A DNA stretch of 38,644 nucleotides from a virus (Duplodnaviria; Heunggongvirae; Uroviricota; Caudoviricetes): the IMG/VR virus record IMGVR_UViG_2850756110_000011; one strand, given 5' to 3'. A program made the position numbers and the translations under genes. Under the pieces are notes generated by a model. It made no database searches, was not told the DNA's origin, and saw only the letters and a list, made by a program, of their open reading frames with translations. Of this stretch, positions 2,265-2,419 are shown piece by piece (position 1 is the first letter of the stretch; each line of letters opens with the position of its first letter).

Positions 2265-2419
2265 AAGTGAATTTTGTGATGCGGTGAATGCGGCTAAGCG
2301 CACGCGGCACAGTTAAAAGTCATGTTAGTCCTTATTGGTTTGGGTGGGAAAGCCGACTGTAATTGTTAACTGGTTAACGTCACCTGGAGGCACTAGGCAC
2401 CGCATCACAAAATTCACTT
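2265..2419. repeat. 155-bp unit bounded by perfect 22-bp terminal inverted repeats (AAGTGAATTTTGTGATGCGGTG / CACCGCATCACAAAATTCACTT)
   Basis: Read directly: 2265-2286 is the exact reverse complement of 2398-2419; interior has a tandem GTTAAC-TG-GTTAAC motif. Confidence 0.6.

Follow-up and report, generated by a model that had tools for sequence, protein, structure and literature searches.

A 155-bp unit at positions 2265-2419 of a 38,644-nt stretch of viral DNA (Caudoviricetes; IMG/VR record IMGVR_UViG_2850756110_000011), referred to here as the window, is bounded by long inverted repeats and raises the question of what kind of element these repeats enclose. The preliminary description of this DNA had left three options: a long-stem structured RNA, a MITE-like miniature element or a binding platform. 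On the evidence set out below, we consider it probable that the unit is a structured RNA of a prophage early-left operon, with an STnc100-like core and an RNase III processing stalk that parts the upstream small RNA (sRNA) from the RNA downstream.

The perfect 22-bp terminal inverted repeats were confirmed by a repeat search. The two arms, 2265-2286 (AAGTGAATTTTGTGATGCGGTG) and 2398-2419 (CACCGCATCACAAAATTCACTT), are each 22 nt long, 100% complementary and separated by 111 nt, and within the 38.6-kb window they are the sole perfect inverted repeat of 18 nt or more whose arms lie no more than 400 nt apart. With one mismatch allowed, the pairing extends to 2262-2422 (24 pairs over 25 positions), and by either count the helix, termed P1, reaches the approximately 20 bp or more of double-stranded RNA expected of an RNase III substrate. 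The + strand of the 155-nt unit was predicted to fold at -60.1 kcal/mol (z = -4.6, equalled by none of 200 shuffled sequences), and P1 also forms in the predicted fold of the whole sRNA-plus-spacer transcript. The - strand gave z = -6.3; that both strands fold better than shuffles is to be expected of any long palindrome-like stem. A terminator scan found no U-run 3' of the P1 3' arm, so the element is not itself an intrinsic terminator. An alternative hairpin between CAUCAC of the 3' arm and a downstream GUGAUG is absent from the K-12 Qin copy and was discarded as not conserved.

The unit had been placed between ydfA and the next open reading frame (ORF). The upstream gene is indeed ydfA, but a DicF/KilS-type sRNA intervenes. 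The surroundings in the window are as follows:

1258-1665, + strand: HTH repressor, upstream of ydfA
1868-2020, + strand: ydfA (DUF1391 YdfA/YdaF protein)
2169-2263, + strand: DicF/KilS-type sRNA of 95 nt, with an intrinsic terminator (stem 2226-2253, U-run 2259-2263)
2458-2486, + strand: promoter-like site TTGAAA-17-TATAAT (11 of 12 matches), belonging to the isrK-C4-Rha antirepressor module; it lies outside the element and marks its downstream boundary
2493-2569, + strand: isrK (Rfam, 63.8 bits)
2595-2682, + strand: C4 antisense RNA (Rfam, 78.6 bits)
2737-3282, + strand: Rha-family antirepressor
3406-3714: IS3-type HTH_Tnp_1 ORF, an insertion sequence directly after the antirepressor gene
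3766-6155: IS66-family genes (Pfam TnpB_IS66 at 4173-4532, DDE_Tnp_IS66 at 4563-6155)

The sRNA at 2169-2263 matched the Rfam DicF family at 2208-2258 with 28.6 bits, under the gathering score of 48, and shares about 83% identity with the K-12 Rac region that carries the ncRNA annotation kilS (b4833). We propose it as the neighbour whose 3' end the element would shape. Across prophages, the same spacer element was seen to be preceded by many different alleles of this DicF/KilS-type sRNA. On the other side, the small ORF with a strong ribosome binding site that had been described at 2442-2654 (70 aa) is probably non-coding: it overlaps the promoter-like site, isrK and the C4 RNA, no Pfam family was found for it, and its counterpart in close homologues is joined to the Rha ORF in a different frame. 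The annotation of such homologues treats it, in that other frame, as the N-terminal part of a 'Rha family' protein of 280 aa, which is likely a RefSeq mis-annotation. The region 2442-3282 as a whole, with its promoter-like site, isrK, C4 and Rha antirepressor, resembles a P1-immI-like or Gifsy-1-like module. Given the insertion sequences that follow the antirepressor gene, the early-left operon is interrupted in this prophage, and a second, putative IS3-type orfA (translation judged by eye) lies at the start of the window (1-339, - strand). Towards the other end, the core-genome marker RybB sRNA was found at 35868-35946 (- strand, 105.3 bits), so the window extends past the prophage into chromosomal DNA.

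In order to collect relatives of the element, a degenerate pattern from its shared 3' segment (CACCNGGAGGCACNNGGCAC) was used, which yielded more than 100 viral loci and 80 genome loci, and a covariance model (R1) was built from 37 diverse copies. Model R1 found a single copy in the window (2275-2409, 84.6 bits). Common to all copies are P1 (...GGUG/CACC...), a junction AAU, a hairpin P2, a pseudoknot strand a, a variable insert, a hairpin b whose loop holds the complementary strand a', the sequence UCACC and a hairpin P5. In the window these parts are laid out as follows:

2265-2286, + strand: P1 5' arm; the inner 9 nt (2278-2286) are the family-wide P1 and the outer 13 nt a subfamily-specific extension, the proposed RNase III stalk
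2287-2289, + strand: junction AAU
2290-2305, + strand: hairpin P2, GCGGC / UAAGC loop / GC-A(bulge)-CGC
2310-2316, + strand: pseudoknot strand a, CAGUUAA, complementary to 2366-2372
2317-2354, + strand: variable insert of one or more predicted hairpins, differing in length and sequence within the family and forming the poorly alignable middle of alignment A1
2355-2381, + strand: hairpin b/b', 2355-2362 with 2374-2381, its loop holding strand a' (UUAACUG, 2366-2372)
2383-2397, + strand: hairpin P5, CCUGG / AGGCA / CUAGG, with GGAGG contained in loop plus stem
2398-2419, + strand: P1 3' arm, ending 22 nt 5' of the ATG at 2442 and 38 nt 5' of the promoter-like site

The helices of this fold are maintained by compensatory changes. 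In alignment A1, P1, P2 and P5 together have 94.2% of cells paired, compared with 35-48% in slid controls; 97 cells are changed on both sides as against 33.4 +/- 4.6 in shuffles, and none of 500 shuffles reached 97, a significance that is inflated by the relatedness of the aligned sequences. The five pairs of P2 are 98.4% paired and its layout of 2 bp, a bulged A and 3 bp around a UNNGC loop is kept, while three of the pairs are C-G in the STnc100 type (CCCCC...GG-A-GGG) and G-C in the window type (GCGGC...GC-A-CGC). P5 is 100% paired with a G-C to U-A covariation at its third pair, an invariance that is partly due to ascertainment as the retrieval pattern fixed most of P5 and left the 5' half unconstrained. 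The GGUGAAU stretch, which was not imposed by the pattern, is invariant or nearly so across A1. G.U or U.G pairs account for 26 cells in the P1, P2 and P5 counts and for two wobbles in the K-12 stem; these would be A.C mismatches on the other strand, which argues that the + strand is the RNA strand.

The pseudoknot and hairpin b were parsed sequence by sequence in 102 distinct copies. At one fixed position, the a/a' complementarity is kept by at least 13 different strand/loop sequence pairs, such as CAGUUAA/UUAACUG, AUCAGCG/UGCUGGU, CCAGUC/GACUGG, AAGGUUG/CAACCUU, CUGGUGU/ACACCGG, AGACUGACA/UGUCAGUCU and ACUGGAUA/UAUCCAGU. Cognate strand/loop pairs were better than non-cognate ones in permutation tests, with 0 of 5000 and 0 of 2000 permutations as good. 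Hairpin b of the window copy has two internal mismatches, a point against the proposed fold. Among the three options initially left open, it is the long-stem structured RNA that was borne out, in the form of a stem, three more helices and a pseudoknot kept via compensatory changes.

An Rfam scan, which had been named as a check, then related this fold to a known family. The STnc100 model (RF02076) matched 2270-2411 with 30.7 bits (E = 2.5e-4), the match covering model positions 21-154 of 206. At the STnc100 gathering threshold of 47 bits there was no match in the window, and the loci L098, L005 and L008, whose P2 is likewise of the GCGGC type, gave no gathering-level STnc100 match either. In a joint alignment with bona fide STnc100 sequences, the consensus helices of that family (closing stem, 5' hairpin and the 3' hairpin CCGGG-AGGCA-CCCGG) are all present in the element. 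The remainder of the model (approximately 155-206) describes the intrinsic terminator of a stand-alone gene; the element has no such part, and the next terminator in the window is that of isrK. As it falls under the Rfam threshold and is without the terminator part of the model, the element was not filed as an RF02076 member; it is a divergent relative of STnc100/PasD, outside RF02076 proper. A match to a known repeat family had been put forward as evidence against an unusual element, and this sub-threshold kinship provides such a match in part, while none was found to ERIC.

Two classes could be distinguished within the family. Copies with a CCCCC-type P2 make up Rfam STnc100 proper; they score at gathering level and lie beside tRNA genes or as tandem arrays in late regions. 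In the same scan, an intrinsic terminator within 100 nt downstream was found for 39 of 69 CCCCC-type copies as against 0 of 55 GCGGC-type copies, and P1 was at least 18 bp long in 31 of these 55. By eye, the short-P1 GCGGC type represented by L005 has a terminator-like hairpin approximately 20-65 nt downstream, so that the lack of a terminator is limited to the DicF/KilS-linked and long-P1 members and does not hold for all GCGGC copies. P1 usually measures 6-13 bp in the family and 17-25 bp in the DicF/KilS-linked, operon-embedded subfamily. Long P1 helices of other sequence occur in Citrobacter (21 bp, AGCAGGCUUUAAGGUGCGGUG), Lelliottia (24 bp), Buttiauxella (17 bp), Scandinavium (22 bp) and the viral contigs L098 and L039 (22-23 bp, CAGACCUUGCAAUGCAGUG...), and the kilR-type P1 attains some 22 bp when a single bulged A is tolerated. 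Such long stalks of unlike sequence across genera indicate that, in the operon-embedded class, selection acts on helix length and not on sequence. Not every embedded copy needs a long stalk, since members of the P7/D6 type are operon-embedded with a P1 of only 8-9 bp.

The unit proved to be multi-copy, a point on which the preliminary description had called for a check. Of 5426 complete E. coli genomes, 4577 (approximately 84%) contain it, with one to nine places per genome (median 2), almost all of them chromosomal; taken as an overall figure, this copy number would fit one per lambdoid prophage. K-12 MG1655 has two copies, in the Qin dicF-dicB spacer (about 82% identical) and in the Rac kilS-kilR spacer (about 94%). 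In the sampled E. coli genomes the element always occupied one and the same position of the early-left operon in Rac/Qin-type prophages; in viral contigs, members of this subfamily invariably lay 3' of a DicF/KilS-type terminator, followed by dicB, kilR, an isrK-C4-ant module or other small genes. Phages P7 and D6 carry the core alone (unit positions 16-140), upstream of terB/tciA in a tRNA region. In the genome loci, model R1 matched 86 sites, all of which belong to Enterobacterales (Escherichia, Shigella, Salmonella, Citrobacter, Enterobacter, Klebsiella, Kosakonia, Pantoea, Erwinia, Rahnella and others) except for two tiny, contamination-like contigs. The operon-embedded class falls below the Rfam threshold and has been left unannotated despite this spread over some 84% of complete E. 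coli genomes and several Enterobacterales genera.

Some further arrangements were seen. In the P1-like phage D6 (L003), three family members at 881-986, 2496-2626 and 3676-3796 punctuate the tRNA/tciA operon, two of them weak (35-36 bits). At about 12243-12447 of L084 (- strand of the locus), a dicB locus has the 3' half of the element only, joined to unrelated upstream sequence at a rearrangement breakpoint. Two to five tandem STnc100 copies adjoin phage tRNA genes (Met, Arg, Arg, Lys) in L015 (2265-3380), L104 (4349-5513) and L029 (2795-3798). Dense arrays were seen on the plasmid NZ_CP133292.1 of Pantoea sp. App145 (L186, 946-1992; L166, 3112-4489), with six STnc100-family units in approximately 1 kb, some spacers of only 4-17 nt, groups of two to three units ending in one terminator and, in some units, GGUG/CACC replaced by the compensating GAAC/GUAC. 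These Pantoea arrays resemble tRNA gene arrays, which implies processing from a common precursor.

The link of the long stalk to RNase III comes from the K-12 homologue. DicF is reported to have two 3' ends, a 53-nt form resulting from Rho-independent termination and a 72-nt form made by RNase III from the full-length transcript (Faubladier 1990, as cited in PMC5069750 and PMC9438474). In the K-12 Qin locus (L001), 53-nt DicF corresponds to 2383-2435, and another 19 nt lead to U2454, nucleotide 13 of the 22-nt arm at 2442-2463, these lengths being taken from the two secondary citations and exact to about +/-2 nt. We infer that, in the K-12 homologue, the 72-nt end as cited falls mid-stalk, where an RNase III cut is expected. 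A cut at nucleotide 13 with a 2-nt-staggered partner would leave a 9-bp P1, within the family-typical 6-13 bp. Table S1 of Gordon et al. 2017 lists position 1649470 ('dicF-dicB', flagged as a known site) with 0/0 wild-type reads versus 26 in delta-rnc, a weak signal given that the list is rich in low-count entries; it lies in the right spacer, but 8 nt inside the end of the 5' arm and not in the arm. A 2023 preprint from the Vanderpool laboratory places RNase III action solely on the 5' side of a 190-nt DicF precursor. What the literature, as cited, contributes on the K-12 homologue is limited to the RNase III-dependent 72-nt DicF.

Based on these observations, we propose the following scheme. 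We take the 155-nt unit for a structured RNA encoded in cis within the early-left operon (PL-like, dicBF/kilR-type) of a Rac-like prophage. The interior of the unit (approximately 2278-2408) has the STnc100/PasD fold, made up of P1, GGUGAAU, P2, an H-type pseudoknot of the post-P2 strand with the hairpin b loop, and P5 (CCNGG-AGGCA-CCNGG), while P1, lengthened to 17-25 bp, would offer a double-stranded substrate to RNase III. The intrinsic terminators of early-left operons would be read through at least in part; a full-length dicBF RNA does exist in K-12. After read-through of the DicF/KilS-type terminator, RNase III would cut both arms near mid-stalk, by homology with K-12 at about 2277|2278 and 2408|2409. 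The upstream sRNA would thereby gain a termination-independent 3' end, the counterpart of 72-nt DicF, the downstream RNA would be detached, and an RNA of about 130 nt with a family-typical 9-bp P1 may be released. Such an excised core would be devoid of the U-tail, the part by which STnc100/PasD-type sRNAs are thought to bind Hfq, and the stability of the released core and any function in trans would be features of this same predicted scheme.

Several other readings have to be weighed against this processing scheme, and two of them concern the DNA and not an RNA. That a MITE or another mobile repeat of the ERIC/REP/BIME kind was inserted between two genes is exceedingly improbable. The perfect 22-bp terminal inverted repeats, which do not discriminate between the readings, and the presence of one to nine copies in each of 4577 of the 5426 E. 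coli genomes would suit it, but the flanks TTTTTA and CGGTGA show no direct repeat (...CCCTTTTTA, then AAGTG...CACTT, then CGGTGATG...), so that the search for flanking target duplications came out negative. Moreover, a query for the empty site, in which the 100 nt on either side of the K-12 copy were joined, detected both flanks in 3868 records, and in an evenly spaced subset of these all 36 of 36 full-length dicF/dicB matches carried an insert of 155-164 bp, the two pieces spanning 354-364 bp; with the window's own flanks as query, the insert was likewise present in the sampled genomes. Orientation and operon position after the DicF/KilS terminator were constant in the loci examined, the arm sequence varies from genus to genus with its pairing preserved and G.U wobbles tolerated, and the interior contains covarying RNA helices. 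The earlier suggestion of a MITE-like element is therefore not borne out, in the absence of a target duplication, of a variable position or orientation and of any empty site among the sampled genomes. The accompanying impression that the unit is unlike ERIC, REP and BIME repeats stood as regards ERIC: the ERIC1R and ERIC2 primer sequences, reportedly those of Versalovic from 1991, found no match anywhere in the window with up to three mismatches. A feature acting at the DNA level, be it an operator for a protein or a conserved linker favouring recombination of phage modules, we regard as very improbable. The element does lie at a mosaic boundary, with a variable sRNA allele upstream and a variable cargo downstream, and L084 keeps its 3' half alone, joined to unrelated DNA; recombination within the element may, however, be a side effect of its conservation, and the compensatory changes together with strand-specific G.U pairs indicate selection on RNA pairing and not on DNA sequence.

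Among the readings that retain an RNA, a purely cis-acting regulator of the 5'-UTR is possible, although we hold it to be doubtful as a full account. The fold would control translation or stability of the next cistron (the toxic dicB or kilR in K-12) through a very stable helix lying 4-35 nt before the Shine-Dalgarno sequence and through the 5'-monophosphate end left by RNase III cleavage, and no trans-acting RNA would be released. A Shine-Dalgarno sequence and start codon do follow long-P1 members within about 4-40 nt, and this reading overlaps with that of an RNase III stalk, the two not being mutually exclusive. The downstream cargo is, on the other hand, unrelated between copies (dicB, kilR, terB and, in the window, a separately promoted isrK-C4-ant), and the same core is found in STnc100-type genes with a terminator and no ORF after it, as well as in dense arrays with 4-17-nt spacers; in view of these ORF-less and arrayed settings, the function of the core must be independent of any downstream cistron. 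It is highly improbable that the element acts on RNA polymerase in the early-left operon, as a put-like processive antitermination RNA, an attenuator or a terminator. Compact structured RNAs inside lambdoid operons that are normally under antitermination, and the terminator 20-40 nt downstream of STnc100-type copies, would be in keeping with such a role, but the element lies after and not before the sRNA terminator, no U-run follows its 3' arm, model R1 found no match at E <= 1 in the genome of phage HK022, which carries putL and putR, and one cis-acting copy per operon would suffice where arrays have up to six copies per kb.

Three further candidates for the core were set aside. A riboswitch using the downstream terminator as platform was considered because the 3' strand of P2 (GGAGGGGC) complements the 5' strand of the terminator (GCCCCUC) in one STnc100 type; by eye, the terminators of other members are unrelated (e.g. 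GGCCGCC...), so that the complementarity is not conserved. A self-cleaving ribozyme is unlikely, as EDL933 carries annotated STnc100 copies of 159-210 nt, of which one (191 nt) is Northern-positive. As for a tRNA-like gene, ARAGORN found ordinary tRNAs only, beside the arrays and none inside the elements.

The processing scheme accounts for the stalk, and a plain long hairpin would suffice for it; the conservation of the complex core is left unexplained by processing. The very strongly conserved junction and loop nucleotides, the pseudoknot and the Pantoea plasmid arrays with 4-17-nt spacers suggest a structure-dependent role beyond seed pairing. As a tentative conjecture, to which we give a low probability, the superfamily of STnc100, PasD and dicF-spacer RNAs might represent not a set of ordinary base-pairing sRNAs but one compact four-helix pseudoknotted RNA, which would use its invariant nucleotides in junction and loops to bind a partner conserved in the cell, for instance the ribosome, an RNase or some other host factor. 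Enterobacterial phages would supply this RNA by two interchangeable routes, either from its own promoter and terminator, often in tRNA-like arrays, or by RNase III excision from an operon. If so, the window element would belong to a new functional RNA class and be its first excised member to be recognised.

Stalks cut by RNase III are known to flank stable RNAs or cistrons in the 16S and 23S rRNA precursors, the early mRNA sites of T7 and the lambda N leader. The window element shares with them a helix of about two turns formed by sequences that flank a structured RNA in a polycistronic transcript. Those known stalks are cut on both strands to release their parts, whereas release would be a predicted step here and the enclosed RNA is a pseudoknotted fold of approximately 110 nt. 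Compared with the K-12 dicBF operon and its RNase III site 3' of dicF, the element has the same post-terminator position and the same long helix as its homologue, but a KilS-type sRNA allele upstream and, instead of dicB, the isrK-C4-Rha module with its own promoter downstream. The closest K-12 copy is that of the Rac prophage, where the order ydaF/ydfA (DUF1391), sRNA and element is the same; the outer stalk has a bulged A in Rac and precedes kilR. This kilS-kilR spacer is unannotated, and no discussion of it was found in the description of the KilS sRNA (Bar et al. 2021, PMC8175672).

STnc100 (RF02076), PasD1/PasD2 and EcOnc27 are Hfq-bound prophage sRNAs. PasD was detected as an Hfq-associated, expressed RNA by RIL-seq and Northern blots in EPEC, STnc100 copies and EcOnc27 are expressed, Hfq-associated RNAs in O157, and STnc100 has also been found in outer-membrane vesicles. 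Members of the STnc100/PasD family were recently recognised as mutually related (Zhu, Shabalina and Storz 2026, preprint), in a text from which the word 'pseudoknot' is absent. The window element shares the architecture and pseudoknot of these RNAs and has in common with STnc100 the nucleotides GGUGAAU, a 5-bp P2 with bulged A and UNNGC loop, UCACC, CCNGG-AGGCA-CCNGG and the closing CACC. It differs in its score (30.7 versus 47 bits), in three swapped pairs of the five in P2, in its long P1, in having neither promoter nor terminator of its own, and in lying in an early-left operon, where STnc100, PasD and EcOnc27 lie in the late region beside Q, tRNAs or stx.

The formation of 72-nt DicF by RNase III, as given in the citing papers, and the existence of STnc100/PasD as a prophage sRNA family were already known. 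In the parts of the literature accessible to us, we found no published identification of the dicF-dicB or kilS-kilR spacer as a divergent member of the STnc100 fold, no description of the hairpin interior, pseudoknot or STnc100 kinship of the dicF-dicB spacer, and no report contrasting terminator-ended with stalk-flanked members. DicF, DicB and KilR are much-studied prophage cell-division inhibitors, yet for the approximately 155-nt spacer before dicB or kilR the same accessible sources yielded no published description. The present analysis groups this spacer, as a conserved pseudoknotted RNA, with the abundant and functionally obscure STnc100, PasD and EcOnc27 RNAs of pathogenic E. coli prophages. 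The long stem moreover coincides with the RNase III site reported in the citing papers, which ties three separate literatures together. Although an RNase III site in the dicBF operon is an old finding as the core mechanism, the connection of known pieces is the gain, and it offers a testable model of one RNA fold made by two routes.

Two further pairings were noted in the sRNA-spacer region. In the K-12 Qin locus (L001), a second long predicted hairpin occurs at about 2173-2260, in the ydfC-dicF interval and near the RNase III cut for the 190-nt DicF precursor. In the window, 27 nt at 2156-2182, where the KilS-like sRNA starts, are 70% complementary to 2296-2322 in the P2 region, with a perfect core of 8 nt (GUGCGCUU/AAGCGCAC); centred on a GCGC palindrome, this complementarity may represent an alternative pairing or chance.
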